NCBI GenBank assembly: GCA_035524795.1
Contig: DATKOF010000011.1
Span: 52,768-116,767 of the forward strand
Direction: 5' to 3'
Source of the DNA: Burkholderiales bacterium
Lineage (GTDB): Bacteria > Pseudomonadota > Gammaproteobacteria > Burkholderiales > SG8-41
Length of the DNA: 64,000 nt
Numbering within the stretch: position 1 is the first letter of the stretch; each line of letters opens with the position of its first letter. Below the pieces are notes generated by a model. The model saw nothing but the letters and a program-made list of their open reading frames with translations, was not told the DNA's origin and did not search any database. Below are positions 34,886 to 61,728 of the stretch, one piece after another. Both the position numbers and the translations under genes were made by a program.

Positions 34886-34889
34886 ACCG

Positions 34890-35498
34890 ATGCTGCCGAC
34901 CGTCACGCGCGCCCTGATCATCATCAACGTTCTGGTGTTTTTCGCCGAGTCTCAGCTCGGCGACTCCCTGATCATGAATTTCGCGCTGTGGCCGATCGGC
35001 ACGCCGCAATCGTCCGGCACGCTCGGCTTCCAGCCGTGGCAGATCGTCACCTACAGCTTCCTGCACGGCGGGTTCGAACACATCTTCTTCAACATGTTCG
35101 CGCTGTTCATGTTCGGCGGACAGGTCGAGCTGCTGATCGGCGCCAAGCGTTATTTCAACCTCTACTTCGCATCGGTGATCACCGCCGCGCTCACGCAGCT
35201 TGCGGTTGCCGCGCTCGCCGGCGGCGAGCCCTATCCGACGCTCGGCGCGTCGGGCGGCGTGTTCGGTCTGCTGCTTGCCTACGGCTATTATTTTCCGAAC
35301 CGGATGGTGATGCTGGTGATCCCGCCGATCCCGATGCGGGCGCGCACGCTGGTGATCGTCTACGGCGCGCTCGAACTTTTTCTCGGCGTCACCGGTGCGC
35401 AGGCCAGCGTCGCGCATTTCGCGCATCTCGGCGGCATGCTCGGCGCCTGGCTGGTCATCAAGCACTGGCGCGGCGGCGGGCCGCAAAGACTGACTTGA
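34890..35498 (+). CDS. rhomboid intramembrane serine protease
   Basis: PWQIVTYSFLH, HIFFNM, GASGG, AHFAHLGG. Confidence 0.92.
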   Translation: MLPTVTRALIIINVLVFFAESQLGDSLIMNFALWPIGTPQSSGTLGFQPWQIVTYSFLHGGFEHIFFNMFALFMFGGQVELLIGAKRYFNLYFASVITAALTQLAVAALAGGEPYPTLGASGGVFGLLLAYGYYFPNRMVMLVIPPIPMRARTLVIVYGALELFLGVTGAQASVAHFAHLGGMLGAWLVIKHWRGGGPQRLT

Positions 35499-36710: not shown

Positions 36711-36769
36711 TTTTTAGCCCTCTCAAAAAGCATTATCAGAGCAAATGGCAACCCCGGAACAAATTCAGC

Positions 36770-45242: not shown

Positions 45243-47786
45243 ATGAAAAACTCGGCGTTTTGGAAGTCCGACTGGTTTCTCGGGGCCGTCGTTACGCTGG
45301 TATTGCTGATTGCCTCCGGTGGCGATCTGATCCAAAGCCTCGAACGCAAGGCCTATGATCTGGGCGTGCGTGCGGCCTCGCGTACCCCGTCGGATCGTGT
45401 CGCGGTAATTGCGATCGACGACGAGAGCATCGCCAACATCGGGCGCTGGCCGTGGCCGCGCGACGTGCACGCCAGGATGATCGACCTGCTGGCCGGCGCC
45501 AAGGCCAAGACCATCGGCTATTCGGTGTTTTTCACCGAGCCCCAGATCGATCCCGGTTTCGCCTACATCAAGCAATTGAAGGAGGCGTTCGGCGCGTCGT
45601 CGCTGAAAAATGGCGCGCAGGGCGAGCAGTTTTATGCGCTGCTCGGCGAAGCCGAGGACGCGCTGAATACCGACCAGAAGCTGGCGGCCAGCATCAAAAA
45701 CGCGGGCAATGTCATTCTGCCGATGGTTTTCAAATTGGGCGAGCCACAGGGTAATCCCGACCATCCTTTGCCGGATTACGTGCTGGCATCCAGCCTGCAG
45801 GTCGCGGGCGCGAACAACGACAATCTGCCGCTGTCGGGAGTCGAGCCGTTGTATCCGATACCGGAATTTTCCACTGCTGCCGCCGGGCTCGGACATCTGA
45901 ATGCCAAGCCGGACGTGGACGGCGCAGTGCGCACCGAGCCTTTGGTGATACGTTATTACGATAAATTCTTCCCCTCCATGGCGTTGCTGCTGGCGACCAA
46001 GAGCTATAACCTCAACGTCGGCGATATCAAGGTGGATCTCGGCAAACAGGTTCAAATCGACAAGTTGCACATCACGACCGACGCCGATACCAGCATGCAC
46101 ACTTTTTTCTATGCTGACAAGGGCGACAAGCCCCCGTTCAGCGTAGATTCCTTTTCCGAAGTCCTGAGCGGCAAGATCCCGGCCTCCAAGTATCAGGACA
46201 AGATTGTGCTGATCGGGGCTACTGCGACGGGAGTGGGCATTTCGCAGGTGACGCCGGTATCGGCATCAACTCCGCCAGTACTGGCGCTCGCACATAGCTT
46301 ATCCTCGATTCTGCAGGAAAATTTCTTCGTCGAACCAGGTTGGGGTTTCTGGGTGAGCAAGCTCGTGTTTATCCTGGTCGCCGCCTATCTGATCGCGCTG
46401 TTGCCGCGGCTCAAGGCGGGCCGCGCCGCAATCTGCACCGCGGCGATTTTCGCGGCGCTGATGATCGCGCATTTCGTGCTGATGACGACGCAACTGATGT
46501 GGATCCAGCTGATGGCGGCGGCGACGCTGCTGCTGGTCGGACACCTGGCATTGACCACCAAGCGTTTCCTGGTCACTGAGCGCAGTAAGGAAGTCGCCGA
46601 TGCCGACCTGATCGTGACCAATCGCAGTCTCGGTCTTGCCGAGCAAGGGCGCGGCAATCTTGACGCCGCCTACGATTACCTGCGGCGGCTGCCGAAGGAA
46701 GACCGCACCGCCGAACTGCTCTACAACCTCGCGCTCGATTTCGAACGCAAGCGGCAGTTCAACAAAGCCGAGTCGGTGCTTCTGTACATCGCCGAATGGG
46801 CGCCGAAGTTCCGCGACGTGCAGGAACGCGCGCAGCGCTCGAAGGTGATGTCGGAGACGGTGATTCTCGGCGGTGCAGCGGGCCATCCCGGCGGTACCAT
46901 GATGCTGAACGCCGGCGAAAAGCCGATGCTCGGCCGCTACCAGGTCGAGAAGGAACTGGGCAAGGGCGCGATGGGTGTCGTCTATCAGGGCAAGGACCCG
47001 AAGATCGGCCGCGTCGTCGCGATCAAGACGATGGCGCTGTCGCAGGAGTTCGAGGCCGACGAACTGGAGGACGTCAAGGAGCGTTTCTTCCGCGAAGCGC
47101 AGACCGCGGGTCGCCTCGCCCACCCGCACATCGTGACGATCTACGACACCGGCGAAGAGCACGACCTCGCTTACATCGCGATGGAATTCCTGAAGGGCAA
47201 GGATCTGACGCCCTACATCAAGCCCGACAACCTGCTGCCGCTGCCGAAAGTGATGTCGATCATCGCGCGGGTTGCCGATGCCCTCACCTATGCGCATGCC
47301 AATAGCGTCGTGCATCGCGACATCAAACCGGCCAACATCATGTATGAACCGGAATCCGATTCGGTCAAGGTTACCGATTTCGGCATCGCGCGCATCACCG
47401 ATTCGTCGAAGACCAAGACCGGCATGGTGCTCGGCACCCCCAGCTATATGTCGCCCGAACAACTGGCCGGCCACAAGATCGAGGGCCGTTCCGATCTGTT
47501 TTCGCTCGGCGTCACGCTGTATCAGCTCGCCTGCGGCCATCTGCCGTTCCAGGGCGATTCGATGGCGCAGCTGATGTTCAAGATCGCCAACGACGCGCCG
47601 ACCGATATCCTGAGCTATAACCCGAACCTGCCGCCGTGCCTGGTCGCGATCATCGATCGGGCGCTGGCCAAACAGCCCGATCAGCGCTATCAGACCGGCG
47701 CCGAGATGGCGCAGGCGATCCGCGAGTGCATGGGGAGCGGCGGCGACGCTCCTCCCAAGCAGGATGTGGTCGATATCGGATTGTAG
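45243..47786 (+). CDS. CHASE2-domain transmembrane Ser/Thr kinase with TPR-like linker
   Basis: CHASE2 motifs IAIDDES, GRWPWPR, D.DG.VR, KIVLIG; three TM; helical TPR-like segment; Hanks kinase LGKGAMG, VAIK, HRDIKPAN, DFG, GTPSYMSPE. Confidence 0.92.
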   Translation: MKNSAFWKSDWFLGAVVTLVLLIASGGDLIQSLERKAYDLGVRAASRTPSDRVAVIAIDDESIANIGRWPWPRDVHARMIDLLAGAKAKTIGYSVFFTEPQIDPGFAYIKQLKEAFGASSLKNGAQGEQFYALLGEAEDALNTDQKLAASIKNAGNVILPMVFKLGEPQGNPDHPLPDYVLASSLQVAGANNDNLPLSGVEPLYPIPEFSTAAAGLGHLNAKPDVDGAVRTEPLVIRYYDKFFPSMALLLATKSYNLNVGDIKVDLGKQVQIDKLHITTDADTSMHTFFYADKGDKPPFSVDSFSEVLSGKIPASKYQDKIVLIGATATGVGISQVTPVSASTPPVLALAHSLSSILQENFFVEPGWGFWVSKLVFILVAAYLIALLPRLKAGRAAICTAAIFAALMIAHFVLMTTQLMWIQLMAAATLLLVGHLALTTKRFLVTERSKEVADADLIVTNRSLGLAEQGRGNLDAAYDYLRRLPKEDRTAELLYNLALDFERKRQFNKAESVLLYIAEWAPKFRDVQERAQRSKVMSETVILGGAAGHPGGTMMLNAGEKPMLGRYQVEKELGKGAMGVVYQGKDPKIGRVVAIKTMALSQEFEADELEDVKERFFREAQTAGRLAHPHIVTIYDTGEEHDLAYIAMEFLKGKDLTPYIKPDNLLPLPKVMSIIARVADALTYAHANSVVHRDIKPANIMYEPESDSVKVTDFGIARITDSSKTKTGMVLGTPSYMSPEQLAGHKIEGRSDLFSLGVTLYQLACGHLPFQGDSMAQLMFKIANDAPTDILSYNPNLPPCLVAIIDRALAKQPDQRYQTGAEMAQAIRECMGSGGDAPPKQDVVDIGL

Positions 47787-47794
47787 CCGCCATC

Positions 47795-48622
47795 ATGACG
47801 ACGAAACTGGGCGCCGCACTCGAAGTCGTGACCGCGACCGATCCCGGCATGGTGCGTTCGCATAACGAGGACAGCATCGCGGCGGACCGGGAACTGGGGC
47901 TCGCGGTGCTGGCCGACGGGATGGGCGGCTACAACGCGGGCGAGGTGGCGAGCGGGATCGCGGTGGCAATGCTGACCAGCGAGATGCGCGAAGCGCTGGC
48001 GGGCACCTCGGCGAACGAAGCGGACGCGTCGGGAACCCCGTTCGCGGTCACGCTGATCAGGGACAGCGCAGGCAAGGCCAATGCCGCGATTTATCAGGCC
48101 GCCCAGAGCCAGCCGCAGTACGCGGGCATGGGCACAACGCTGGTCGCCGCGTTGTTTTATGATAATCACGTGGCGATCGGCCATATCGGAGATTCGCGGC
48201 TGTATCGGCTGCGCGGCGACGGTTTCGAGCAGGTCACGCGCGACCACTCGTTGTTGCAGGAACAGATCGACAGCGGCATGATAAGCAAGGAGCAGGCACG
48301 TTATTCCCAGAACAAGAATCTGGTGACACGCGCGGTCGGCATCGATCCCGAGGTCGAAACCGAGGTTCACACGTACGAAGTCGAGCCGGGAGATATTTAT
48401 CTGCTGTGTTCGGACGGCCTGAGCGACATGGTCGAGGACGAGGATATCCACAATACGCTGTCCATGCTGAGGACGAATCTGCCGCTGGCGGCGCAACAAC
48501 TGATACAGCTTGCCAATGACAACGGCGGGCGCGACAACATTTCGGTGATTCTGGTGCGGGTGCTGGGAGATTATGCGGTGCCCAGTGGCTGGTTTGCCAG
48601 GCTCAAGGCCTGGTTTGGATAA
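47795..48622 (+). CDS. PP2C-type Ser/Thr phosphatase (Stp1/IreP-like)
   Basis: R.HNED, LADGMGG, GEVAS, GMGTT, IGDSR, TRDHS, LCSDGL, GGRDN. Confidence 0.95.
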   Translation: MTTKLGAALEVVTATDPGMVRSHNEDSIAADRELGLAVLADGMGGYNAGEVASGIAVAMLTSEMREALAGTSANEADASGTPFAVTLIRDSAGKANAAIYQAAQSQPQYAGMGTTLVAALFYDNHVAIGHIGDSRLYRLRGDGFEQVTRDHSLLQEQIDSGMISKEQARYSQNKNLVTRAVGIDPEVETEVHTYEVEPGDIYLLCSDGLSDMVEDEDIHNTLSMLRTNLPLAAQQLIQLANDNGGRDNISVILVRVLGDYAVPSGWFARLKAWFG

Positions 48623-48643
48623 TACGGTGACAGGAAGATTGCC

Positions 48644-49372
48644 ATGGCGAAGCTAATCATGAGTCTCGACAACGCGGTGATCCGCGAGGTGCCCCTCGAC
48701 AAGGAGCGCGTCACGATCGGCCGCAAAGCCCACAACGACATCCAGGTCGACAATCTGGCGGTCAGCGGCGAACACGCGGTGATCGTGACAATACTCAACG
48801 ACTCGTTTCTGGAAGACCTCGGCAGCACCAACGGCACCCTGGTCAACGGCAATCCGGTCAAGAAACACATCCTGCAGACCAATGACGTGATCGAAATCGG
48901 CAAGTACAAGTTCAAATACGTCGCCGACCAGGGGGCCGGCAAGGCGTCGGTGGCCGATTTCGAGAAAACCATGGTGCTGCGTGGTCCGGTGCCGCGCGCG
49001 GCTGCAGCACCGGGGGCGGGAGGCTTCGGCGATACCCAGATCAATACCACGACCACCGTTTCCTCCCCCAGCCATCCGCCGGCCAGCCTCGGCAAACAGC
49101 CGGAGAAGATGGCCGCGGTGCAGATTCTGACCGGGCCGAACGCCGGTAAGGAACTCGAACTGACGAAAAACCTGACCACGCTCGGCAAGCCCGGCGTGCA
49201 GGTCGCGGTGATCACGCGCCGGCCGCACGGGCACTTCATCACCCATGTCGAGGGCGCCAATTTTCCGATCGTCAACGGCAAGCCGCTCGACGCCCAGGCG
49301 CATCAGTTGAATGACCATGACGTGATCGAACTGGCGGGCGTCAAGATGGAATTTTTTCTCAAGAACAGCTAG
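48644..49372 (+). CDS. FHA-domain protein with second FHA-like C-terminal domain
   Basis: IGR, VSGEHA, DLGSTNGT phospho-Thr-binding motifs; Thr-rich linker; C-terminal VNG..L...DVIELAG repeat. Confidence 0.92.
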   Translation: MAKLIMSLDNAVIREVPLDKERVTIGRKAHNDIQVDNLAVSGEHAVIVTILNDSFLEDLGSTNGTLVNGNPVKKHILQTNDVIEIGKYKFKYVADQGAGKASVADFEKTMVLRGPVPRAAAAPGAGGFGDTQINTTTTVSSPSHPPASLGKQPEKMAAVQILTGPNAGKELELTKNLTTLGKPGVQVAVITRRPHGHFITHVEGANFPIVNGKPLDAQAHQLNDHDVIELAGVKMEFFLKNS

Positions 49373-49482
49373 CTTCCCTCAATCTTTCGGCTGCGGCCGG
49401 CGATGATTCGCACAGAGGGCGACGCCGGCGGGTGCCGACACTTTCCAAGGCGACACATGACCATGCTTGCTGAGGCGGCCGG

Positions 49483-51729
49483 ATGGAGAGCCTGAAAAAA
49501 CACGCCGTACGCATCGGTCTCGGCCTCATCCTGGTCGTCGTTTTCCTGCTGCACGCGGGCAAGTGGATCGAGTTGCCGCTGATCGGGCGGCTCGAGGCGA
49601 TCGTCTACGACACGCGGCTCGAACTGACCATGCCGCGCACCGTCGACGACCGCATCGTGATCCTCGACATCGACGAAAAGAGTCTGGCCGAGAAGGAAAA
49701 GGGCGGCGAGGGCCACTGGCCGTGGCCGCGCGACCGGCTGGGCGCGCTGCTCGACGAACTGTTCGACCACTACCAGATCACGATCGTCGGTTTCGACGCG
49801 GTGTTTGCGGAGCGCGACCAGAGTTCCGGCTGGGGCGTGCTGCAGCAACTGGCGCAGAAGGAGCTGCGCGACGTCGGCGGATTCCAGTCGAAGCTGCGCG
49901 GACTGCAGCCGCAGCTCGATTACGACGGAATTTTTGCCGCCAAAATGCGCGGACGCCCGATCGTGCTCGGCTACACATTTTCCGATAACGATACCGCTGG
50001 CACCAAGGGCGCGCTGCCGGCGCCGACGCTTGCCGCCGGCACCTTCGCCGGCAAAAACATCGATTTCCGCAGATACGCCGCCTTCACCGCCAACCTCCCG
50101 GAATTGCAGCAGGCGGCCGCCAGCGCCGGTCATTTCAATCTTGATCCCGATGACGATGGCATTCTGCGCCGCGTGCCGATGCTGGTGGAATTCAACGGCG
50201 CCTATTACGAGCCGCTGTCACTGGCGATCGTGCGCATGCTGGCGGGGTCGCCGTCGGTGACGCCGGAATTTGCGCCGGGCAAGATCTGGTCGAAGAATTA
50301 CTCGGGGCTGGAGTGGCTGAACGTCGGTTCGCGGCGCATCCCGGTCGATGAAAAAGTCACCGCGCTGATCCCGTACCGCGGCGGTCAGCGCAGCTTCAAG
50401 TACATTTCCGTCGTCGATGTGCTGCATGAACGGGTGCCGGTCGGCGATCTGAAAGGCAAGATCGTGCTGGTCGGCACCACCGCGCCGGGCCTGCTGGACC
50501 TGCGCGCGACGCCGGTCGGCTCGGTCTATCCCGGCGTCGAAGTGCACGCCAACATGATTTCCGGGATGCTCGACAACGACATCAAGCAGAAGCCGCCGTA
50601 TGTGATCGGCGCCGAGTTCATGCTGGTACTACTGGCCGGAGTCACTCTCGCGCTGCTGTTGCCGACGCTGAGTCCGCTGAAGGCGCTGATCACGACATCA
50701 ATCACGCTGCTGCTGCTGATCCTGATCAACGTCGTGGTGTTCCATTACGGCAATCTTGTGCTGCCGCTGGCATCGGCGCTGGTGATGGTGGCGCTGCTGT
50801 TCGCGCTCAACATGTCGTACGGCTTCTTCGTCGAGGACGCGCGCAAACGCCTGATCACCGGGCTGTTCGGCCAGTACGTGCCGCCGGAACTGGTCGATGA
50901 AATGGCGAAGAATCCGGAGCAGTTCAGCATGGCGCCGCGCGCGCAGGAACTGTCGGTGCTGTTTTCCGACGTGCGCGGGTTCACCACCATTTCCGAAAGC
51001 CTGTCGCCGGAAGACCTCGCGGTGTACATCAACGAGTATCTGACGACGATGAGCCTGGTGATCCGCGAACGCCACCGCGGCACGCTCGACAAGTACATCG
51101 GTGACGCGATCATGGCGTTCTGGGGCGCGCCGCTGCCGGACCCGGCGCACGCGCGCAACAGCATACTCGCGGCGCTCGACATGCAGCAGGAGGCGGTGGC
51201 GCTCAACGAAAAGTTCAAGGCGCGTGGCTGGCCGACGTTCCGGATCGGCATCGGCATCAATACCGGGGTGGTGCGCGTCGGCGACATGGGGTCGCAGATC
51301 CGCCGCGCCTATACCGTGATGGGCGACGCGGTCAATCTGGCGTCGCGGCTGGAGGGCATCACAAAGGAATACCACGCTGATATCATAGTGGGCGAGGCGA
51401 CCCGGAATGCGGTTTCCGACATCGTGTTTCGCGAGTTCGACAAGGTGCGCGTCAAGGGCAAGGACGAAGCGGTGGCGATTTACGAACCGCTGGGGCTGCA
51501 GGGGCAGATCAGCAAGGCCAGACTCGATGAAACCAAGCTGTACGGACAGTTTCTCCGACTTTACCGGGCCCAGGACTGGGACCAGGCCGAACTGCAGCTG
51601 TTCAATCTGCAGAAAATGGCGCCGGACAACGCGCTCTACAGCCAGACGCTGCCGGAGCGTATTGCCCATCTGCGCGGGAACCCGCCGGGCGCGGGTTGGG
51701 ACGGCGTATTCACCTTCAAGACCAAGTAG
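49483..51729 (+). CDS. CHASE2-domain class III adenylate cyclase
   Basis: CHASE2 (DIDEKS, WPWPR, DDDGILRR, PGVEVHA), three TM, LFSDVRGFT, DKYIGDAIMAFWGAP, YTVMGDAVNLASRLEG. Confidence 0.93.
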   Translation: MESLKKHAVRIGLGLILVVVFLLHAGKWIELPLIGRLEAIVYDTRLELTMPRTVDDRIVILDIDEKSLAEKEKGGEGHWPWPRDRLGALLDELFDHYQITIVGFDAVFAERDQSSGWGVLQQLAQKELRDVGGFQSKLRGLQPQLDYDGIFAAKMRGRPIVLGYTFSDNDTAGTKGALPAPTLAAGTFAGKNIDFRRYAAFTANLPELQQAAASAGHFNLDPDDDGILRRVPMLVEFNGAYYEPLSLAIVRMLAGSPSVTPEFAPGKIWSKNYSGLEWLNVGSRRIPVDEKVTALIPYRGGQRSFKYISVVDVLHERVPVGDLKGKIVLVGTTAPGLLDLRATPVGSVYPGVEVHANMISGMLDNDIKQKPPYVIGAEFMLVLLAGVTLALLLPTLSPLKALITTSITLLLLILINVVVFHYGNLVLPLASALVMVALLFALNMSYGFFVEDARKRLITGLFGQYVPPELVDEMAKNPEQFSMAPRAQELSVLFSDVRGFTTISESLSPEDLAVYINEYLTTMSLVIRERHRGTLDKYIGDAIMAFWGAPLPDPAHARNSILAALDMQQEAVALNEKFKARGWPTFRIGIGINTGVVRVGDMGSQIRRAYTVMGDAVNLASRLEGITKEYHADIIVGEATRNAVSDIVFREFDKVRVKGKDEAVAIYEPLGLQGQISKARLDETKLYGQFLRLYRAQDWDQAELQLFNLQKMAPDNALYSQTLPERIAHLRGNPPGAGWDGVFTFKTK

Positions 51730-52000
51730 AACCTATCTCAGAATCCCCCATGAGCCGCGTTTACACGAAAAATGCTCAGCTGCCAGGCGCGCGACGAAGG
51801 TCGTATTCGAGATACGATGCCGAGGAGCGCAACGTCGCAGACGGGCATTTTTCGTGCAAACCCTTCGGGGCGGGGCGTTGCGGGCGGTCTGCGGTGTCGC
51901 GCCGCTTGCGAAGGGGGATGGCCATTCGCTGCGCGGCGCTTCGTGCATCCCATCCCGCAACGCTGACGCCGCGGCCACGCGGGATTTTGAGATAGGTTCT
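51728..52000. mobile_element. MITE-like non-autonomous element, 273 bp
   Basis: terminal inverted repeats AGAACCTATCTCAGAATCCC and GGGATTTTGAGATAGGTTCT (19/20 match), no transposase. Confidence 0.75.
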
Positions 52001-52003
52001 TAG

Positions 52004-52768
52004 ATGAAACTCAGAATTCTCGGTTGCAGCGGCGGCATCAGCCGCGACCTGCGCACCACCTCGATGTTGATCGACGACGATGTGCTGATCGACGCCGGCA
52101 CCGGAGTCGGCGACCTGAGCATCGAGCAGCTCAAGCGCATCGACCATGTGTTCCTGACGCACTCCCATCTCGACCACGTGGCTTCGGTACCGTTCATGGT
52201 CGACACCGTCGGCTGGCTGCGCGACAAACCGATCACCGTGCACGCGATCGAGCCGACGATCAAGGTGCTGCGCGATCATCTGTTCAACTGGAAACTGTGG
52301 CCGGATTTCGCCGAGATCCCCGATGCCCATCAGCCGTTTTTGCGCTACGAGACCATCACGCTCGGCAAGACGATCGATCTGAACGGCCGCAAACTGACGC
52401 CGCTGCCGGCCAATCACGTGGTGCCGGCGATCGGCTACCAGATCGACGGCGGCCGTGCGAGCCTGGTGTTCACCGGCGACACCACGACCCACGATCCGCT
52501 GTGGCGCGAAGTCAACAAGATCGAGAATCTGCGCTATCTGATCATCGAGACCTCGTTCTGCAACCGCGAGAAGGCACTCGCGATCGAATCCAAGCACCTG
52601 TGCCCGAGCATGCTGTGCGAAGAACTTGCCAAGCTGAAGCGGCCGGCCGAAATCTACATCACGCACCTGAAACCGGGCGAGGTCGAGGTCACGATGCGTG
52701 AAATCATGGAATGCGGCGGGGCGTGGAAACCGCGCATGCTCGAGAACGATCAGGTGTTCGAACTGTGA
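52004..52768 (+). CDS. class II (metallo-beta-lactamase fold) 3',5'-cyclic nucleotide phosphodiesterase
   Basis: LGCSGG, IDAGTG, THSHLDH, FNWKLWPDF, FTGDT, SKHL.P, ITHLKP. Confidence 0.85.
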   Translation: MKLRILGCSGGISRDLRTTSMLIDDDVLIDAGTGVGDLSIEQLKRIDHVFLTHSHLDHVASVPFMVDTVGWLRDKPITVHAIEPTIKVLRDHLFNWKLWPDFAEIPDAHQPFLRYETITLGKTIDLNGRKLTPLPANHVVPAIGYQIDGGRASLVFTGDTTTHDPLWREVNKIENLRYLIIETSFCNREKALAIESKHLCPSMLCEELAKLKRPAEIYITHLKPGEVEVTMREIMECGGAWKPRMLENDQVFEL

Positions 52769-52796
52769 TCACATCATTGCAAGGAGCGGGCATATC

Positions 52797-55187
52797 ATGA
52801 GTGCAGTGCTCGAAAGCAAGGCGACGGCCCAGGACAGCCTGCTCGCCGAGAAGCTGAATTTCTCGAAGCGGCTGCAGGCCGTCACCAACAAGATCCACGC
52901 GACCAACAACATCGACGAGATCATGCTCGAACTGAGCCAGGATATCTGCGGCCTGTTCAACGCGGACCGGCTCACGCTCTATCTGATCAGCGAGGACAAG
53001 ACCTCGATCGTGTCGAAGGTCAAGACCGGCCTCCATTCGTTCAAGGATCTCAAGTTGCCGATCGCCGAACAGAGCGTCGCCGGCTTCGTCGCCGTCCACA
53101 AGAAGGCGATCAACATCAAGGATGTCTACGACGACAACGAACTCAAATCGTACAGCCCGCAGCTCAATTTCCTGAAGCAGGTCGACAGCAAGACCGGCTA
53201 CCGCACCAAACAGATGCTGGTGGCGCCGGTGGTCGACGCGCAGAACAAGGAACTGATCGGGGTGGTGCAGATCATCAATTCCAAGACCGGCCAGCCGTTC
53301 CCGCCGGTGATGGAGGAAGGCGTCGCGCATCTCTGCGAAACCCTCGCCATCGCGTTCCGGCAACGCCAGAAACCGGCGATGCAGGTGCGCGGCAAATACG
53401 ACCATCTGGTGACCAACGCCGTGCTGTCCGCCGAAGAGCTTGAACTGGCGACGCGCTCGGCGCGGCGCAAAAACCTCGATATCGAAACCGTGCTGTCCGA
53501 CGAATTCCAGGTCAAGGCGGGCGCGATCGGCGAGGCGCTCGCCGCCTATTTTCAGGTCCCGTACGAGCCGTTCAAGGCGGACCGCGTCAAACCGCTCGAC
53601 CTGCTGAAAAACATCAGCCGCGAGTTCGCCGAGAGCAACGGCTGGGTGCCGATCGACGATACCAAGGACGGCATCCTCGTGCTGACCACCGATCCGGAAA
53701 AGATCAAAGGCTCGCGCGTCGTCAACAACGTCTTCCCGAAGAGCAAGGTCGTCTACAAGGTCTGCGGCAACCGCGAGTTCGTGATGACGCTCGATCAGAC
53801 TTTCGGCGGCGGCGGCGCCGCATCCGGCATGGTCGACGACACCACCGACATCGGCGACCTGCTGTCGGGCATGGAGGGCGAAGAGGCGGGTGAAGACAAC
53901 AACGAAGATGTGGCGTCCGCCGCCGCCGACAACGAAGTGGTCAAGCTGGTGAACAAAGTCATCGTTGACGCCTACAAGCAGGGCGCCTCCGACATTCACG
54001 TCGAGCCTTATCCCGGCAAGGCCAAGACCGAAATCCGCTTCCGCAAGGACGGTTCGCTGGCGCCGTACATTTCGGTGCCGGCCGCCTACCGCAGCGCGAT
54101 CGCGGCGCGTCTGAAGATCATGTGCGACCTCGATATCTCCGAACGCCGCAAGCCGCAGGACGGCAAGATCAAGTTCAAGCGCTTCGGGCCGCTCGACATC
54201 GAGCTGCGGGTCGCGACGATACCGTCGCAGGGCGGCGTCGAGGACATCGTGATGCGGATACTCGCCGCCGGCGAGCCGATTCCGCTCGACAAACTCGGCC
54301 TTTCCAAGCGCAATCTCGAACAGTGCAAGGAGGCGATTTCCAAGCCGTACGGACTGTTCTTCGTGTGCGGGCCGACCGGTTCCGGCAAAACGACGACGCT
54401 GCATTCGGTGCTCGGCTATCTGAATACGCCGGACACCAAAATCTGGACTGCTGAAGACCCGGTCGAAATCACCCAGCGCGGCCTGCGCCAGGTGCAGATG
54501 AACCCGAAGGCCGGACTCACTTTCGCAGTCGCGATGAAAGCGTTCCTGCGCGCCGATCCCGACATCATCATGGTCGGCGAAATGCGCGACAAGGAAACGG
54601 TCGGCACCGGCATCGAAGCGTCGCTGACCGGCCACCTGGTGTTCGCGACGCTGCACACCAATTCCGCGCCGGAATCGATCATCCGGCTGCTCGACATGGG
54701 GATGGACCCGTTCAACTTCGCCGACGCGCTGCTCGGCATCCTCGCGCAACGTCTGGCCAAGCGGTTGTGCGGTAAATGCAAGAAACCCCATGTCGCGACC
54801 GAGGAGGAGCTCGACAAGCTGATGGAAGAGTATGTGACCGAGCTGCTGAACACCGAGAGCTGGAAAAAGGATCTGAAAAAAGCGCGCGCCGAACTGAAGG
54901 AAGAATGGCACCGGGAATTCGGCAACGAAAAGGGCGAGATCACGATTTACGAGCCGGTCGGCTGTGAGGTCTGCGGCGGTGGCGGCTACAAGGGTCGCGT
55001 CGGCCTGCACGAACTGCTGATCGGCACCGACGCGATCAAGAAGAACATCCAGGAACATGCGCGGGTCGCTGAAATGTTCGCGACCGCGCTCGAAACCGGC
55101 ATGCGCACGCTGAAGCAGGACGGCATCGAAAAGGTGTTGATGGGCATCACCGACATCCATCAGGTGCGCGCGGTCTGTATCAAATAG
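52797..55187 (+). CDS. GAF-domain PilB/GspE-family secretion/pilus assembly ATPase
   Basis: N-terminal GAF (DSKTGYRTKQML...GVVQIINSK), ASDIHVEP, DISERRKPQDG, Walker A GPTGSGKT, AEDPVE, Walker B VGEMRD, TGHLV..TLHTN, CGKC/CEVC Zn site. Confidence 0.92.
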   Translation: MSAVLESKATAQDSLLAEKLNFSKRLQAVTNKIHATNNIDEIMLELSQDICGLFNADRLTLYLISEDKTSIVSKVKTGLHSFKDLKLPIAEQSVAGFVAVHKKAINIKDVYDDNELKSYSPQLNFLKQVDSKTGYRTKQMLVAPVVDAQNKELIGVVQIINSKTGQPFPPVMEEGVAHLCETLAIAFRQRQKPAMQVRGKYDHLVTNAVLSAEELELATRSARRKNLDIETVLSDEFQVKAGAIGEALAAYFQVPYEPFKADRVKPLDLLKNISREFAESNGWVPIDDTKDGILVLTTDPEKIKGSRVVNNVFPKSKVVYKVCGNREFVMTLDQTFGGGGAASGMVDDTTDIGDLLSGMEGEEAGEDNNEDVASAAADNEVVKLVNKVIVDAYKQGASDIHVEPYPGKAKTEIRFRKDGSLAPYISVPAAYRSAIAARLKIMCDLDISERRKPQDGKIKFKRFGPLDIELRVATIPSQGGVEDIVMRILAAGEPIPLDKLGLSKRNLEQCKEAISKPYGLFFVCGPTGSGKTTTLHSVLGYLNTPDTKIWTAEDPVEITQRGLRQVQMNPKAGLTFAVAMKAFLRADPDIIMVGEMRDKETVGTGIEASLTGHLVFATLHTNSAPESIIRLLDMGMDPFNFADALLGILAQRLAKRLCGKCKKPHVATEEELDKLMEEYVTELLNTESWKKDLKKARAELKEEWHREFGNEKGEITIYEPVGCEVCGGGGYKGRVGLHELLIGTDAIKKNIQEHARVAEMFATALETGMRTLKQDGIEKVLMGITDIHQVRAVCIK

Positions 55188-55198
55188 GAATTCCCGCC

Positions 55199-56857
55199 GT
55201 GAACCAGATGCAGCGCCCGCCCGATCCTTCGAACCTGTTCGAGCGGCTCGAACAGCTCAACCAGATCGGCGTCGCGCTGTCGAAGGAAACCGACATCAAC
55301 CGGCTGCTCGAGGCGATCCTGCTGGCGGCCAAGAACATCACCAACGCCGACGGCGGCACGCTCTATCGCGTAACCGAAGAGCGCACGCTCAAGTTCGAAA
55401 TCATGCGCAACGACACGCTGGGCGTCGCGATGGGCGGCACCACCGGCGTCGAGATACCGTTCTACCCGATCTATCTCTACGACAAGGACGACAATCCGAT
55501 CAACTCGATGGTCGTCGCCTACGCCTATCACCATGACCGCTCGGTCAATATCGCCGACGCCTATATCGAGGAAGGCTTCGATTTTTCCGGCACCAAGAAT
55601 TTCGACAAGAAGACCGGCTACCGCTCGCAGTCGTTTCTGACGGTGCCGATGAAGAACCACGAAAACGAGATCATCGGCGTGCTGCAGCTGCTCAACGCCA
55701 AGGAGCGCGCAACCGGCCGGGTGGTGCCGTTTTCGACGGAAGACCAGCAGCTCGCTGAATCGCTGGCGTCGCAGGCCGCGATCGCGCTGACCAACCGGCT
55801 GCTGATCAACCATCTCGAAAACCTGTTCGAATCGTTCATCAATCTGATCAACGCCGCGATCGACGACAAATCGCCGTACACCGGCGGCCACTGCGAACGC
55901 GTGCCGATGCTGACGATGATGCTGGCGGAGGCGGTCAACAACGTGAAGGTCGGACCGCTCCGCGATTTCCACATGACCGACAAGGACCGCTACGAACTCA
56001 AGATCGCGGGACTGCTGCACGATTGCGGCAAGGTGACGACGCCGGTGCACGTCGTCGACAAGGCGACCAAGCTGCAGACGATCTTCGACCGCATCCATCT
56101 GCTCGACACCCGCTTCGAGGTCGTCAAGCGCGACGCCGAGGTCGCGATGCTGAAGGCGAAAGCGGCGGCGCTGGAAAAAGGCGACGCGGCGGCGGCGAAA
56201 AAAGCCGAGCGCGACTTCGAAATCCGGCTGCGCGAAATCAACGAGGACCGCGAATTCCTGCGCTTCACCAATGTCGGCGGAGAAGCGATGAAGGAGGACG
56301 AACAGCAAAGGGTGCGCGCGATCGCGTCGAAGTACCGCTGGCGCGACGTGCAGGGCAATCTGACCGATTTCCTGACCGCCGAAGAGGTCGAGAACCTGAC
56401 CATCAAAGCCGGCACGCTGACTGCCGCCGAACGGCAGATCATCAACCACCACATCGACGTGACGATCCAGATGCTGGAGGCGCTGCCGTGGCCGCGCCAC
56501 CTGAAGCACGTTCCCGAATATGCGGGCGGCCACCACGAACGGATGGACGGCAAGGGTTATCCGCGCGGGCTGACGCGCGACCAGATGTCGGTGCAGGCGC
56601 GCTGCATGGGCATCGCCGACATCTTCGAGGCGCTGACCGCGAAGGACCGCCCCTACAAGAAGGGCAAGACACTGTCGGAATCGCTGGCGATCCTCGGCAA
56701 ATTCAAGCTCGGCGGCCACATCGATCCCGACCTGTTCGACGTGTTCGTGTGGGAAAAGGTCTATCTCAAGTACGCGGAACAGTGCCTCGACCCGCAGCAG
56801 ATCGACGAGGTCGATGTGTCGAAGCTCCCCGGCTATGCGCCGCCGCCGCTGCATTGA
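55199..56857 (+). CDS. GAF + HD-GYP phosphohydrolase
   Basis: GAF (FDKKTGYRSQSFLTVPM...IGVLQLLNAK), TGGHCERV, LLHDCGK, HHERMDGKGYPRGL, IADIFEAL. Confidence 0.92.
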   Translation: MNQMQRPPDPSNLFERLEQLNQIGVALSKETDINRLLEAILLAAKNITNADGGTLYRVTEERTLKFEIMRNDTLGVAMGGTTGVEIPFYPIYLYDKDDNPINSMVVAYAYHHDRSVNIADAYIEEGFDFSGTKNFDKKTGYRSQSFLTVPMKNHENEIIGVLQLLNAKERATGRVVPFSTEDQQLAESLASQAAIALTNRLLINHLENLFESFINLINAAIDDKSPYTGGHCERVPMLTMMLAEAVNNVKVGPLRDFHMTDKDRYELKIAGLLHDCGKVTTPVHVVDKATKLQTIFDRIHLLDTRFEVVKRDAEVAMLKAKAAALEKGDAAAAKKAERDFEIRLREINEDREFLRFTNVGGEAMKEDEQQRVRAIASKYRWRDVQGNLTDFLTAEEVENLTIKAGTLTAAERQIINHHIDVTIQMLEALPWPRHLKHVPEYAGGHHERMDGKGYPRGLTRDQMSVQARCMGIADIFEALTAKDRPYKKGKTLSESLAILGKFKLGGHIDPDLFDVFVWEKVYLKYAEQCLDPQQIDEVDVSKLPGYAPPPLH

Positions 56858-56999
56858 TGTCTTTCGCCGCTGACGCTGTGCGGCACATTCTGCCGATTCA
56901 TGTGCCATCACCCGGGGCAGCCGTTGCAAAGCAGGTTGTTGGATGCTGCGGAAGGGCGGTCTGGCGTTAAAATATCACGCTGTCAGCGGATTTTGTCGT

Positions 57000-57014
57000 T
57001 GGCATGGAGTTTGC
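57000..57014 (+). promoter_or_regulatory. sigma54 (-24/-12) promoter of the pilin gene
   Basis: TGGCATGGAGTTTGC with GG-N10-GC spacing, 65 nt upstream of the pilin start. Confidence 0.8.
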
Positions 57015-57078
57015 GGTGAATACGTCCGGACGGGCATAATTTCCCGGCTCATTAACAACCTACAGGAAGGAGCTTCAC

Positions 57079-57639
57079 ATGGTTCGCCAAATGCAGAAAG
57101 GCTTTACCCTGATCGAACTGATGATCGTGGTCGCGATCATCGGCATTCTGGCCGCGGTCGCGCTGCCGGCGTATCAGGACTATACGATTCGCGCCAAGGT
57201 GTCCGAAGGCCCGACGCTGGCTGACGGCATCAAGCTTGCTGAAACCGAAACCTTCCAATCGAAGGGGCCGGGAGATATGACCTGTTCCGATGCAACGACT
57301 TGCGGCAACATCGGCGCCTCCCTCCCGTCTGGCACGAACAACATTACGTCTATTGTGAGCGGCGCTGATGGCACGATCACCATTAGCTACACTGCTGCAG
57401 TGGTGCCGAGCGGTGCGAATGTGCTGACCATTGTGCCGAGCGTGGCGCTGAACGATATCAACTCCGCGGGCAGCCAGGTCAACTGGTCGTGCGGCGGCGC
57501 CGCCACCACGGTTGATCAGAAATATCTGCCTTCGACCTGTCGCGGCAACACCGGCAACGCTGCCGGCTATGGCTCGACCAGCACCAGCAGCTCTTCGAGC
57601 AGCAGCTCCAGCTCTTCTTCGAGCAGCTCGGGCAGCTGA
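57079..57639 (+). CDS. pilA: type IVa major pilin with poly-Ser C-terminal tail
   Basis: class III signal [31 protein letters not shown]-terminal WSC...TC disulfide loop, AAGGAG RBS. Confidence 0.95.
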
Positions 57640-57661
57640 TCGTTCCTTCCCGGCCGTGCAG

Positions 57662-57691
57662 AAAGCCCCTCGCAAGAGGGGCTTTTTGTTT
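57662..57691 (+). terminator. intrinsic terminator after pilA, probably bidirectional
   Basis: AAAGCCCCTC-GCAA-GAGGGGCTTT-TTGTTT between convergent genes. Confidence 0.85.
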
Positions 57692-58746
57692 CAGCAGACG
57701 CCGGGGATGAAGCGGTAATGGATCTGCTGCTTGTAGCGGTCGTAGCCGTCGCCGAGCAGCGACAGATGCCGTTCTTCGGTCCAGGCGCGGGCGGCATAGA
57801 TCACCGTGAACAGCGCCATGCAGCCGACGGACCACAGGCCTTTTTCGAGCGAGCCCGAAAACGCCGCCGCGAACGTCGGAAGGGCGCCGATCCACCACGC
57901 GAGATTTTTGGCGGCATAAGCGGGGTGGCGCACCCAGCGGTACGGTCCGCTGGCGATGACGCCGCGGTTGGTCAGGTTGCTGGCCTTCCAGCCGAGCGCG
58001 ACCGAGGCCCAGGCATAGATCGCCATCAGACCAAGGATCAGGCAGTCGGCGCCGATTTCCAGAGCGGAATCCGTGAAGCGCGGCGCGTCGGACGACTGCC
58101 AGGGGAAGACGTAGGTCGCCATGCCGTTGAAGGGCGGATAGCAGGCGATGCAGACCGCCCATCCCAGAAACGTCGGCTCCACGCTGCGAATGACGTTATC
58201 GAGCCGCGGAATTTCGACCATGTAGCCGAACGTGAAAATGATGACGTCGACGAAAAACAGCAGATTCAGCAGCAGCAGATACAGATGCAGGTGAAAGCCG
58301 GCCGCCACGGTGGTCAGCGCGTGGTATTCCCGCGCCACGATCGCGAGGTTGTTGACCACGAAATTGATCATCAGCGGCAGGAAAAAGAATTTGAGCGCGA
58401 TGGCGAGCCACGCCTGCTTTTCCGCGAAGCCGAAGCGCGGCTGTTGCCGGCGCGCCCATCGCATCAGCCACGATAGCGCGATGCGCGCCTTGCTGACGGT
58501 GGCCGGGAACAGGCGGTAGTAGGCGATCAGCGCGACGGTGTAGACGATTCCCGCCGCGGTCAGCAATCTGTCGGCGGTCAGCGGAAACCAGATCGTGCCG
58601 CTGTCGTTGTGGATCAGAAAATAGCCGTTGAAAGTCCGGACCCGGAAATCGCCCGCGGACAGCGCGATTCCCGCCCACATCACGATCAACGTCGGCAGAT
58701 AATTGGCAAAGAAATTTTTCCAGTCACGGTTTTCCGGCATGGGCAT
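57691..58746 (-). CDS. ICMT/PEMT-family membrane methyltransferase
   Basis: multi-TM; C-terminal GPYRWVRHPAY...RAWTEERHL...Y..Y...YRFIPG. Confidence 0.8.
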   Translation of the reverse strand: MPMPENRDWKNFFANYLPTLIVMWAGIALSAGDFRVRTFNGYFLIHNDSGTIWFPLTADRLLTAAGIVYTVALIAYYRLFPATVSKARIALSWLMRWARRQQPRFGFAEKQAWLAIALKFFFLPLMINFVVNNLAIVAREYHALTTVAAGFHLHLYLLLLNLLFFVDVIIFTFGYMVEIPRLDNVIRSVEPTFLGWAVCIACYPPFNGMATYVFPWQSSDAPRFTDSALEIGADCLILGLMAIYAWASVALGWKASNLTNRGVIASGPYRWVRHPAYAAKNLAWWIGALPTFAAAFSGSLEKGLWSVGCMALFTVIYAARAWTEERHLSLLGDGYDRYKQQIHYRFIPGVC

Positions 58747-58862
58747 CGTCCATGGAAAGAGCGGAGCTTATCAGCTAGCCGCCTGTTCCGGGATACGGCG
58801 CCGCGTGTTGCAGGAAGTAACCGCGTTTGGGAACTTGCGGGCGGCTGGCTTATCATAGGGGC

Positions 58863-60311
58863 GTGAAAATCCGCAATCTGATGCTCGCGCTGGCGCTGCT
58901 CGCCGTTCCCGCCGCCTTTTCCCAGAACCTGCCCGATCTCGGCGATGAATCCCAGAGACTGCTGTCGCCGCTGCAGGAGCTGCAGCTCGGCCGCGAAATC
59001 ATGCGCGAGATACGCGCCGACCCCAGCTATTCCGACGATCCCGAGGTCGTCGACTACCTGAACGCGCTCGGCCGCCGGCTGGCGATGGCGAGTCCCGATC
59101 CCAACCAGCAGTTCGATTTCAACCTGCTGATCGATCCGCAGATCAACGCTTTTTCGCTGCCGGGCGGTTTCGTCTGCGTCAATTCGGGATTGATCATGAC
59201 CGCGCAGAACGAATCCGAGCTGGCCGGCGTGCTGGGCCACGAAATGGGCCACGTCGAGCAGCGTCACTTTGCGCGCCAGATGGCGGAGCAGCAGCGCGGG
59301 CAGATACTGTCGCTGGCGACGATGGCGGCCGCGCTGCTGGCGTCGCGCGCCAATCCCGATCTGGCGCAGGCGGGAATCATGGGATCGCAGGCCGGTTTCG
59401 TGCAGAGCCAGCTCAGCTATTCGCGCGACAAGGAACGCGAAGCCGACCGCGTCGGTTTCCAGACCATGGTCGGTGCCGGTTTCGACCCGCAGGGCATGGC
59501 GTCGTTTTTCCAGCGGCTGCAGCAGGCGACGCGCCTCGAGGATGACGCTCCGGTTTATCTGCGCACCCACCCGCTGACCTACGAGCGGATCGCCGACATG
59601 CAGAACCGCGCACAGAGCGTCCCTTATCGCCAGGTGCCGGACAGCCTGGAATTCCAGCTGGTGCGCGCCAAACTGAAGGCCGAGATCGGCGACGCCAAGG
59701 ACAACGTCGCCTTTTTCGAACAGAGCCTGAGCGAGAAAAGGTATCTGAATGAAGCGGCCAGCCGCTACGGCCTGGCGGCGTCGCTGGTGATCGCCAAGAA
59801 CTACGACCGCGCCAAACAGGAGATACAGACCCTGCGCAAGCTGCTGCCCGGAAATCCGATGGTGGCCGATCTCGCCGCCCAGATTTACGACGAATCCGGA
59901 GACACCAACACCGCGCAGCAGATCTACCACGACACGCTGCAGGCGTATCCCAACTACCGCGCGCTGACTTACGATTATGCCGACGTCCTGCTGAAACACA
60001 ATCAGCCGGCGGCGGCGCTCAAGCTGGTCGAGAAGCGCCTGCAGTTGGCGCCGTCCGACTATCATCTGTACCAGTTGCAGGCGCGCAGTTACGCGGCGCT
60101 CGACAAACACCTGCTCGAGCATCGCGCGCAGGCCGAGGCCGATTTCCGCCTTGGCGACATCAAGGCCTCGATCGAACAGTTGCGGCTCGCGCAGAGAAGC
60201 GGCGACGGCGATTTCTATCAGATGGCCGGGGTGGAGGCGCGGCTCAAGGAGCTGCAGGCGCTGCTGCCGCCGGAAGATGACGATCGCAAGGACCGCCAGG
60301 GCCGTCACTGA
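58863..60311 (+). CDS. bepA: BepA/YfgC-family M48 periplasmic metalloprotease with TPRs
   Basis: LPDLG, INAFSLPGG, LGHEMGH, SRDKEREAD, LRTHP, TPR C-terminus. Confidence 0.9.
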   Translation: MKIRNLMLALALLAVPAAFSQNLPDLGDESQRLLSPLQELQLGREIMREIRADPSYSDDPEVVDYLNALGRRLAMASPDPNQQFDFNLLIDPQINAFSLPGGFVCVNSGLIMTAQNESELAGVLGHEMGHVEQRHFARQMAEQQRGQILSLATMAAALLASRANPDLAQAGIMGSQAGFVQSQLSYSRDKEREADRVGFQTMVGAGFDPQGMASFFQRLQQATRLEDDAPVYLRTHPLTYERIADMQNRAQSVPYRQVPDSLEFQLVRAKLKAEIGDAKDNVAFFEQSLSEKRYLNEAASRYGLAASLVIAKNYDRAKQEIQTLRKLLPGNPMVADLAAQIYDESGDTNTAQQIYHDTLQAYPNYRALTYDYADVLLKHNQPAAALKLVEKRLQLAPSDYHLYQLQARSYAALDKHLLEHRAQAEADFRLGDIKASIEQLRLAQRSGDGDFYQMAGVEARLKELQALLPPEDDDRKDRQGRH

Positions 60312-60432
60312 GTAACGGTTCCCCGCCCGCTCCGTCACAGCGGTTTTTATTTGTCGTGCGGCGTCCGTCACGGAACGGACGCAAGACGATGCTTTATAAT
60401 CCCGGGCTCCCGGCAATCGCAGGACGTGCTGC

Positions 60433-61728
60433 GTGAATAAAATCGGCAAATACGAAATCATCCGCGAACTCGGCAAGGGCGCGACCAGCGCCGTCTATGA
60501 GGCGCTCGATCCGTTCGTCAACCGGCACGTTGCGGTCAAGGTCGTGTTCGCCGACGCCCTCAGCAACAAGGAGCACGGACGGCGTTACCGCAAGCTGTTC
60601 CTGACCGAGGCGTCGCTGGCCGGAAAACTGGCGCATCCGCACATCGTCAGCATCTACGACGCCGCCGCCGACGACGAAGCCAGCTATATCGTGATGGAAT
60701 ACGTCGACGGCACCACGCTCGAGCAGCACAGCCGTCCGGAGAACCTGCTGCCGGTCAACAAGGTGATTGAAATCATCTTCAAGTGCACGAAGGCGCTCGA
60801 TTACGCGGCGAAGCACGGCGTGATCCATCGCGACATCAAGCCCGCCAACATCCTGCTGTCGGGGGAGAACGACATCAAGATATCCGATTTCGGCGCGGCG
60901 CTGACCAGCGCGACCGAAACCACCCAGGTCACCGGCATCGGTTCTCCGGCCTACATGTCGCCGGAGCAGGTCAAGGAGCAGCCGCTGACGCATCAGACCG
61001 ATATTTTCTCGCTCGGCGTCGTGCTGTATCAGATGCTGACCGGCAGACTGCCGTTCCAGGCCACCAACAACTACAGCATGGTGTATCAAATCATCAATGC
61101 GGAGCCGCCGCTGCCGAGCAGCATCCGTCATGAGATTCCGCCGCAGCTCGACGCGATCGTGATGCGCGCGCTGCAGAAGGATACCGCTGTCCGCTATCAG
61201 ACCTGGGAGGATTTCGCGCACGATCTGGTCGCGGTGTTCGGCAATCTTCAGCAACCGGAGAAAAACATACCCGACAGCGAGAAGTTCGACGTGCTGCGCA
61301 AGCTCGCTTTCTTCGGGGGATTCAGCGACACCGAGTTGTGGGAGGTGCTGCGGATCACGGCATGGAACAAGCATGCGCCGGGCACGGTGCTGATCAGGGA
61401 AGGCGACGTCGGCCAGTCGTTCTTCATCGTGGTCGACGGCGAAGTCAAGGTGACGATGCAGGACAAGCTGCTCAACCTGCTGAAGAGCGGGGATTGCTTC
61501 GGCGAGATGGCGTATCTCGGGAAAAAGCAGTTTCACCGCACCGCGAGCATCTCGGCTGCGACCGACATCACCGTGATCGAGATCAAGGCGGAGTCCCTGA
61601 ACCACGCCAGCGAAACCTGCCGCCACCATTTCAACGGCGCTTTCCTCGAAATACTGGTTGACCGGCTGTCGATGGCCAACACGCGGCTGTCGCAATTGCT
61701 CGCAGACCGCAACATCAGCGTGTTCTGA
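60433..61728 (+). CDS. cytoplasmic Ser/Thr kinase with C-terminal cyclic-nucleotide-binding domain
   Basis: LGKGATSAVY, VAVK, HRDIKPAN, DFG, GSPAYMSPE; CNB motifs IREGDVG.SFFIV..GEV, GDCFGEMAYL, RTASI. Confidence 0.92.
   Translation: MNKIGKYEIIRELGKGATSAVYEALDPFVNRHVAVKVVFADALSNKEHGRRYRKLFLTEASLAGKLAHPHIVSIYDAAADDEASYIVMEYVDGTTLEQHSRPENLLPVNKVIEIIFKCTKALDYAAKHGVIHRDIKPANILLSGENDIKISDFGAALTSATETTQVTGIGSPAYMSPEQVKEQPLTHQTDIFSLGVVLYQMLTGRLPFQATNNYSMVYQIINAEPPLPSSIRHEIPPQLDAIVMRALQKDTAVRYQTWEDFAHDLVAVFGNLQQPEKNIPDSEKFDVLRKLAFFGGFSDTELWEVLRITAWNKHAPGTVLIREGDVGQSFFIVVDGEVKVTMQDKLLNLLKSGDCFGEMAYLGKKQFHRTASISAATDITVIEIKAESLNHASETCRHHFNGAFLEILVDRLSMANTRLSQLLADRNISVF

Follow-up and report, generated by a model that had tools for sequence, protein, structure and literature searches.

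Gating of PilB by cyclic di-GMP (c-di-GMP) is already known, as are relatives of every part of the gene cluster described here, and the motif RLGxxL is the c-di-GMP motif of the N1D domain of the MshEN family. In the type VI secretion system (T6SS), the membrane Hanks-type kinase PpkA, the PP2C phosphatase PppA and the FHA protein Fha1 are encoded in a row. The distinct PilB homologue TfpB, according to the available parts of the report, is a proven second or alternative extension motor in Acinetobacter baylyi and was suggested to be the sole motor in Pseudomonas fluorescens A506 (PMC8213720). TfpB is also treated in a 2024 review of PilB control, in whose available text cyclic AMP (cAMP) acts on pili via transcription, with no mention of GAF (PMC11656802). 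Here we describe a cluster of eight genes in a window of 64,000 nucleotides from a Burkholderiales bacterium (assembly GCA_035524795.1, contig DATKOF010000011.1, positions 52,768 to 116,767; all unprefixed coordinates below count from the first letter of this window), which includes a gene for a PilB-type ATPase with an N-terminal GAF domain (GAF-PilB, 52797..55187, + strand). We consider it fairly probable, judging from sequence and gene context, that GAF-PilB represents a distinct PilB-type branch with a cAMP-type GAF, is a likely extension motor of type IVa pili (T4aP), and is switched by cAMP through the neighboring cyclase and phosphodiesterase (PDE). What is new is the apparent replacement of pilB and the chimeric motors that accompany it. 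The preliminary description of this DNA knew of no experimental account of such an architecture, and our literature search, at title and abstract level and mostly among open-access papers, likewise found neither a GAF-fused PilB nor such a cluster described.

GAF-PilB comprises the GAF domain, an N1D domain without the c-di-GMP motif, and a PilB/GspE-type ATPase core, in which about 40 amino acids (aa) form a helical insert in the loop between the zinc cysteines. The Walker A and B motifs, the Asp and His boxes and the four cysteines are conserved in its homologues, which places the protein among PilB/GspE-type ATPases (PF00437), and its best match in the PDB is PilB of Myxococcus xanthus (3jc8, E 2.6e-110). 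The protein scored below the cut-offs of the PilB, GspE and TfpB profiles, with 486 bits for TIGR02538 (PilB, cut-off 675.65), 443 bits for TIGR02533 (GspE, 630) and 381 bits for NF053534 (TfpB, 850). In a FastTree phylogeny of 117 rows, the GAF-PilB proteins formed their own clade with a support of 100, apart from PilB and TfpB. Given the scores and the separate clade, we rejected an identity with canonical PilB, TfpB or MshE. The MshEN fold is kept (PF05157 above cut-off), while RLGxxL was found in none of 51 GAF-PilB N1D regions and is present in the MshE of the same genome. An AlphaFold model (predicted local distance difference test, pLDDT, 88.8; predicted template modeling score, pTM, 0.57) shows three folded units (GAF, N1D and the ATPase core). 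The linkers between them have low confidence, and the model therefore does not define how the units are placed relative to one another. Several ATPases inside the clade (L192, L199, L203, L204, L206 and L218) had no GAF domain detected by BLAST queries.

The distribution of GAF-PilB was analyzed in 251 genomes of the source's order, the source genome included, using the N-terminal 300 aa as the query. This query was matched in 122 genomes, about half of the sample (three weak or partial carriers, G095, G137 and G256, were retained in the counts), and in 27 of 41 relatives. Canonical PilB, defined as a score above the TIGR02538 cut-off with five candidates scored per genome, a limit that itself counts against our reading, was found in 140 genomes. 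Altogether, 53 genomes possess both ATPases, 69 GAF-PilB only, 87 canonical PilB only, and 42 neither. In the source genome, corC is directly followed by pilC-pilD without pilB, and pilM, pilQ, pilT/U and pilV are present. The pilC gene was found in 66 of the 68 other genomes with GAF-PilB only. At these 66 loci, corC lies directly upstream of pilC in 48 cases and no ATPase occurs within 1.5 kb in another 8 (56 empty pilB slots), 7 loci hold a GAF-PilB-family ATPase core, 2 retain short pieces of a canonical pilB, and one contig is too short. By comparison, PilB is encoded upstream of pilC in 24 of 24 controls, whereas the GAF-PilB gene of the window does not adjoin pilC-pilD. We rejected a mere assembly gap as the cause of the missing pilB, because corC and pilC are contiguous on contig C24 and the same arrangement recurs in 48 of the 66 loci. 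The canonical remnants between corC and pilC (L154:2938-3578 in G172 and L316:989-1438 in G129) are pointing to recent deletion of pilB in these two GAF-PilB carriers.

The ATPase cores in the pilB slots of the 7 genomes are GAF-less relatives of the GAF-PilB core. Two of these genomes encode full-length chimeras in the corC-pilC-pilD slot, both on the - strand (L152:3868-5691 in G194 and L153:3681-5528 in G201), in which a canonical N1D is fused to a GAF-PilB-family ATPase core. Residues 1-160 of the chimeras share 48-64% identity with the best canonical PilB and 14-28% with GAF-PilB, and the remainder shares 52-100% identity with the GAF-PilB of the same genome (79.5% and 83.3% for DNA). In five more genomes, belonging to family f42, the GAF-PilB-family core in the slot was seen on shorter loci. 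The FastTree phylogeny separates G194 from G201, and a single origin is compatible with the approximately unbiased (AU) test (p-AU 0.29, for 18 rows taken from the 117). Second, divergent copies of the GAF-PilB family also occur outside the cluster (L297, at G104:C1:188085-189311, as well as L079 and L080), the copy in G104 being on a very long branch.

Several observations weigh against GAF-PilB as the principal motor. Canonical PilB is retained in 53 of the 122 carriers, and TfpB occurs in the source genome as well as in 41 of the other 68 genomes with GAF-PilB only. The genomes are related, hence the counts are not independent and no statistical test is given. In addition, the canonical N1D of the chimeras suggests that the N1D of GAF-PilB may dock unlike that of PilB. 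The retention of PilB and TfpB, together with the use of two motors by A. baylyi in the available account of that system (PMC8213720), would suit an accessory T4aP motor that primes or tunes a machine driven mainly by TfpB or PilB, possibly within mixed hexamers. We regard such a subsidiary role as rather doubtful, since 27 of the 68 genomes have neither PilB nor TfpB, pilM is still retained in 26 of these 27, and one of them (G065) holds a GAF-PilB-family core in the pilB slot. Among the 42 genomes without PilB and GAF-PilB, pilM scored above its cut-off in only one. Three genomes from a single family (G042, G216 and G180), which are closed or nearly so and group together in the tree, have just one other ATPase of PilB/GspE length each, and that of G042 sits in its own gspF operon. 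GAF-PilB thus looks like a replacement of PilB and not only a spare: it is likely an extension motor, predicted to act via PilC, and is probably the main or only one in lineages that lost pilB and retained the other pilus genes examined. The link between the cluster and type IV pili, drawn in the preliminary description, has become stronger than was claimed there, because the ATPase stands in for the lost pilB.

We retrieved 76 neighborhoods of GAF-PilB genes, left out 17 with short flanks, and counted the remaining 59 full-flank loci, including those of G007 and G049, which are flagged as unpublished. The motor is accompanied by the PDE in 51 loci, the GAF-HD-GYP protein in 48, the PP2C phosphatase in 47, the FHA protein in 46, the cyclase in 35, the CHASE2 kinase in 31 and the pilin in 28. 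All seven signaling genes occur together in 28 loci and the complete set of eight in 14, and the gene order is constant wherever genes of the cluster occur together. The cluster is therefore a real but modular block of environmental Betaproteobacteria, and the recurrence of its order across many families shows that it did not arise by chance. This survey, proposed in the preliminary description as a check, bears out the co-occurrence of the genes; the label "self-contained" given there does not hold, as the CHASE2 kinase and the cyclase adjoin the motor in only 31 and 35 of the loci, respectively. Among named records, a scan of 1 of the 64 parts of the collection revealed a rearranged cyclase/HD-GYP/PDE/GAF-PilB set in Pseudoduganella rivuli FT92W and in Massilia sp. 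Bi118, neither of which has the kinase trio nearby, as well as deltaproteobacterial and Nitrospira homologues of GAF-PilB without the cluster.

The deltaproteobacterial and Nitrospira homologues, the profile scores below the PilB (486 versus 676) and TIGR02533 (443 versus 630) cut-offs, the position near MshE in the quick tree (weak support of 84) and the 31 of 59 loci that lack a pilin over about 7 kb would be expected if the ATPase powered a filament of the MSHA or type II secretion system (T2SS) kind, or if it were a signaling scaffold whose pilin neighbor merely reflects an old sucCD-terC synteny. We give this explanation very little credence. The MSHA-like and T2SS-like clusters of the source genome have their own ATPases, 7 genomes have a GAF-PilB-family core between corC and pilC-pilD, and pilM is kept where no other motor was found.

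The predicted response of the motor to cAMP depends on its sensor domain. The best PDB match of the motor GAF (approximately residues 11-191) is the cAMP-binding GAF of Anabaena CyaB2 (1ykd, E 5.7e-30), followed by the GAF domains of PDE2, PDE5 and PDE10. The cAMP contacts of CyaB2 given in the available text are R291, T293, I308, D356 and N359 (PMC4411481). We placed these residues by counting along the 1ykd alignment and determined their conservation over 51 homologues from the order. R291 and T293 correspond to R58 (51/51) and T60 (50/51) of the motor, I308 and D356 to V75 (Val or Ile in 50/51) and D130 (51/51), and N359 to T133 (Thr or Ser in 51/51), where Thr/Ser is found as in the PDE2 sequence. 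Four of the five named contacts are thus retained, one of them with an Ile-to-Val change, and the fifth, Asn, is replaced by Thr. Of 14 distant homologues, 13 also have the adenine-contacting Arg and 12 the Thr. Based on this pocket, the motor is predicted to be gated directly by cAMP.

The putative source of cAMP is encoded upstream (49483..51729, + strand) and combines CHASE2, membrane helices and a class III nucleotidyl cyclase domain with the adenylyl-type Lys/Thr, as assigned by Pfam and a PDB match. The residues with defined roles in class III cyclases are two metal-binding Asp, the substrate Lys with Thr or Asp, and an Asn..Arg pair. The cyclase matches CyaB of Pseudomonas aeruginosa (3r5g, E 9e-31), and its motifs FSDVRGFT, DKYIGD and YTVMGDAVNLASR align with those of CyaB and are conserved in 38 sequences, so that its residues are those predicted for a class III adenylyl cyclase with the ATP-type Lys/Thr. 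The next gene (52004..52768, + strand) encodes a metallo-beta-lactamase-fold protein, a probable class II cyclic nucleotide phosphodiesterase. Class II enzymes are recognized by the PDEase_II profile and the motif HxHLDH; the protein scored 53 bits against the profile cut-off of 23.7, albeit over a short stretch, and all 30 of its Atlas matches carry PDEase_II. Its relatives in the PDB are weak (yeast Pde1, E 1e-4), and other enzymes of the same fold score similarly. The earlier assignment of this protein to the class II enzymes is consistent with the profile and finds little backing among solved structures.

The third enzyme of nucleotide metabolism follows the motor (55199..56857, + strand) and is a GAF-HD-GYP protein of the PmGH family, in which the HD, HHExxDGxGYP and RxxK motifs are invariant or conserved in 39 of 40 sequences, as predicted for a c-di-GMP-type phosphodiesterase. 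Its HD-GYP domain is split by an insert of about 100 aa (56081-56398) that has no Pfam match of note and is conserved in the family. The GAF domain of this protein has Gly/Ala in place of the adenine-contacting Arg of CyaB2. Motif conservation for the kinase, PP2C, cyclase, PDE and HD-GYP proteins extends over 31 to 52 homologues. In 5 of the 59 loci, a gene encoding a fusion of a cyclic-nucleotide-binding (CNB) domain with rhodanese is inserted between the PDE and the motor, which provides an independent pointer to cyclic nucleotides. This fusion was observed between the PDE and GAF-PilB in L039, L042, L051, L075 and L170, and also in L175, L181, L183, L184, L191 and L214. Taken together, the layer of cAMP synthesis, degradation and reading that was postulated from the sequence is coherent with regard to the cyclase, the motor pocket and the CNB-rhodanese insertions; the GAF of the HD-GYP protein, counted there as a second cAMP reader, lacks the adenine-contacting Arg.

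Other observations speak against direct cAMP control of the motor. Its NKFDE motif is incomplete, with N161 and F168 invariant and the K and D positions not conserved. The isolated GAFb of CyaB2 binds cGMP beside cAMP, according to the available text (PMC4411481). In 24 of the 59 loci, no cyclase gene accompanies the motor. Among 25 genomes without an adjacent cyclase, 6 contain a close, near-full-length match elsewhere (E under 1e-170), 8 a weaker one, and 11 none with the cluster-cyclase query; some class III cyclase domain was found in all 10 of these 11 genomes that were tested. These facts, and the 9 CNB-domain matches in the source genome, are those expected if GAF-PilB were a real motor whose GAF reads cGMP or a metabolite, or serves in docking, with cAMP acting instead on the CNB-containing kinase K2 downstream, the CNB-rhodanese fusion and other CNB proteins. 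Such an alternative appears improbable to us, given the near-invariant Arg/Thr pair that extends to distant homologues and the presence of the PDE beside GAF-PilB in 51 of the 59 loci.

In our model of a cAMP-switched motor, an envelope cue would activate the CHASE2 cyclase and cAMP would rise. Binding of cAMP to the GAF domain would then alter either the ATPase activity or the docking to PilC or PilM, in either direction, and the PDE would clear cAMP and reset the signal. The GAF-HD-GYP protein would tune c-di-GMP in parallel.

The first three genes of the cluster, all on the + strand, form a candidate layer of Thr phosphorylation. K1 (45243..47786, assigned by Pfam) consists of CHASE2, membrane helices, a TPR-like region and a Hanks-type Ser/Thr kinase domain preceded by an ETVIL motif. 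It is followed by a Ser/Thr phosphatase of the PP2C/Stp1 family (47795..48622; 253 bits for NF033484, cut-off 230) and by an FHA protein (48644..49372; Pfam and motif conservation) with an intact N-terminal FHA domain, a linker containing EKTMVL, and a degenerate C-terminal FHA-like domain. FHA domains prefer a hydrophobic residue at the third position after the phosphorylated Thr. The ETVIL-type motif ahead of the K1 catalytic domain (26 of 30 sequences) and the EKTMxL-type motif of the FHA protein (40 of 46) fit this preference, and the kinase/PP2C/FHA trio is therefore probably a working Thr-phosphorylation switch, fed by the paralogous CHASE2 sensor. The kinase/FHA module proposed earlier is thus coherent. 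In contrast, a direct phospho-link from this module to the motor has no support in the sequence: we looked for a conserved T-x-x-I/L/V/M motif in the GAF-PilB linkers, which are of low confidence in the model, found none, and rejected GAF-PilB as a conserved substrate of FHA. The Tad-type ATPase of the source genome (L092:7383-9074) has an N-terminal FHA domain, and is a second pilus-motor candidate for Thr phosphorylation. The preliminary description also noted the absence of T6SS and Chp genes, and we agree: the 85%-complete source genome gave no match to VipB of T6SS and none to the PilJ domain, and the Pfam matches in 34 open reading frames (ORFs) of window positions 1-41 kb included none to a family of T6SS or Chp. 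With no VipB found in that genome at 85% completeness, T6SS regulation was rejected as the role of the cluster.

The eight co-oriented genes and the downstream kinase-CNB gene reported earlier were confirmed as nine ORFs at their described positions on the + strand, and their catalytic motifs are intact. Translation most likely begins at 47795 in the PP2C gene and at 52797 in that of GAF-PilB. Pfam agrees with the domain calls (CHASE2 and Pkinase; PP2C_2; FHA; CHASE2 and Guanylate_cyc; PDEase_II/Lactamase_B_2; GAF, MshEN and T2SSE; GAF and HD/HD_5; N_methyl and Pilin; Pkinase and cNMP_binding), except in two cases that do not reach the Pfam cut-offs, the TPR_12 match of the kinase (E 1.5e-4) and that of the second FHA domain (E 0.05, without the GR..S..H motif). 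The gaps between the genes from K1 to the pilin are 8, 21, 110, 274, 28, 11 and 221 bp, and judging by these sizes a single transcript for the eight genes is possible. A scan for promoters and terminators yielded chance levels (5 versus 4.2 expected, and 19 versus 16.4).

The eighth gene encodes a type IVa pilin (57079..57639, + strand) with a G|FTLIE processing motif and the strongest N_methyl match of the genome. Its long Ser-rich C-terminal tail is encoded by 57560-57639, and in relatives, genes for Wzy_C or TPR-containing proteins commonly lie behind the pilin gene, which suggests pilin glycosylation. Between the pilin and K2 stand two genes, an ICMT-like membrane protein on the - strand (57691..58746; weak Pfam/NCBIfam matches), which is probably a bystander, and a BepA-like M48 peptidase with TPR (58827..60311, + strand; Pfam/NCBIfam), a backbone gene ahead of K2. 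K2 itself (60433..61728, + strand) is a soluble Ser/Thr kinase with a CNB domain and an FGE..RTA cassette, and is a loosely linked member of the cluster. It lies inside the retrieved flank in only one of the 59 loci; of the 21 best K2 matches, 17 share a contig with the motor gene and follow it at a distance of 7-42 kb, and 16 of these are on its strand. K2 was matched in 35 of 50 carriers, compared with 0 of 10 genomes that have canonical PilB but no GAF-PilB. Elsewhere in the window, a gene at 35826-36713 encodes a CHRD-OmpA fusion, and two open frames of 1593 and 308 aa without a Pfam match (29246-34951, - strand) may only be shadows cast by true genes on the opposite strand.

If GAF-PilB is indeed switched by cAMP, a cAMP sensor on the motor would be a new mode of control for the widespread machine of twitching, DNA uptake and phage attachment, and the motor would account for whole families that have pilC, pilD and pilM without pilB. 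The chimeras bear on the open question of what fits an extension ATPase to its own machine. A broader scenario is tentative at present, though well worth considering: in many betaproteobacterial families, T4aP would be run by a third kind of motor, distinct from PilB and TfpB, that is gated allosterically by cAMP via its GAF, pilB would have been repeatedly deleted or rebuilt with the new core, and two paralogous CHASE2 receptors would feed cAMP and phospho-Thr signals into the motor, so that a post-translational circuit would take the place of transcriptional control by Pil-Chp/Vfr.

Compared with described systems, GAF-PilB resembles PilB (M. xanthus 3jc8, Geobacter 5tsg and Thermus PilF 6f8l) in its N1D-N2D-CTD organization, its Walker, Asp and His boxes and its four-Cys zinc site, and differs in the extra N-terminal GAF, the zinc-loop insert of about 40 aa, the separate clade and the location away from pilC. 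Like TfpB of A. baylyi, it is a phylogenetically separate homologue of PilB whose gene does not lie with pilC, and TfpB works on the T4aP machine, as far as the available text goes (PMC8213720); the two belong to different clades, and the GAF domain and the signaling cluster are particular to GAF-PilB. The c-di-GMP-gated MshE, PilB and PilF likewise carry a second-messenger sensor N-terminally on an extension ATPase, whereas the sensor of GAF-PilB is a GAF of the cyclic-nucleotide type and RLGxxL is absent from all 51 sequences. The best structural relative of this sensor, the CyaB2 GAF (1ykd), aligns at all five named pocket residues, and the motor GAF differs in being single rather than tandem, in its ATPase output, in the change of Asn359 to Thr and in the incomplete NKFDE motif. 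For the membrane class III cyclase and a tie between cAMP and type IV pili, the nearest parallel is the Pil-Chp/CyaB/Vfr pathway of Pseudomonas, as presented in the available parts of the 2024 review (PMC11656802). That route is transcriptional, whereas the source genome has no PilJ match, and its sole CRP-family regulator, at 85% completeness, is FNR-like (Cys-rich). Like PpkA/PppA/Fha1 of T6SS, the cluster encodes a membrane Hanks-type kinase, a PP2C phosphatase and an FHA protein in a row, and it departs from that system in the lack of VipB, in a score below the TagH cut-off, and in the use of CHASE2 as the sensor. Finally, the cluster HD-GYP protein has the same GAF-HD-GYP architecture, metal ligands and c-di-GMP-type RxxK as PmGH (4mcw) and Tlr0485, and differs from them by its insert of about 100 aa and by Gly/Ala in its GAF at the position of the adenine-contacting Arg of CyaB2. 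Tlr0485 requires cAMP bound to its own GAF, according to the accessible portion of the report, and is a precedent for activation by cAMP (bioRxiv 2021.11.05.467447).

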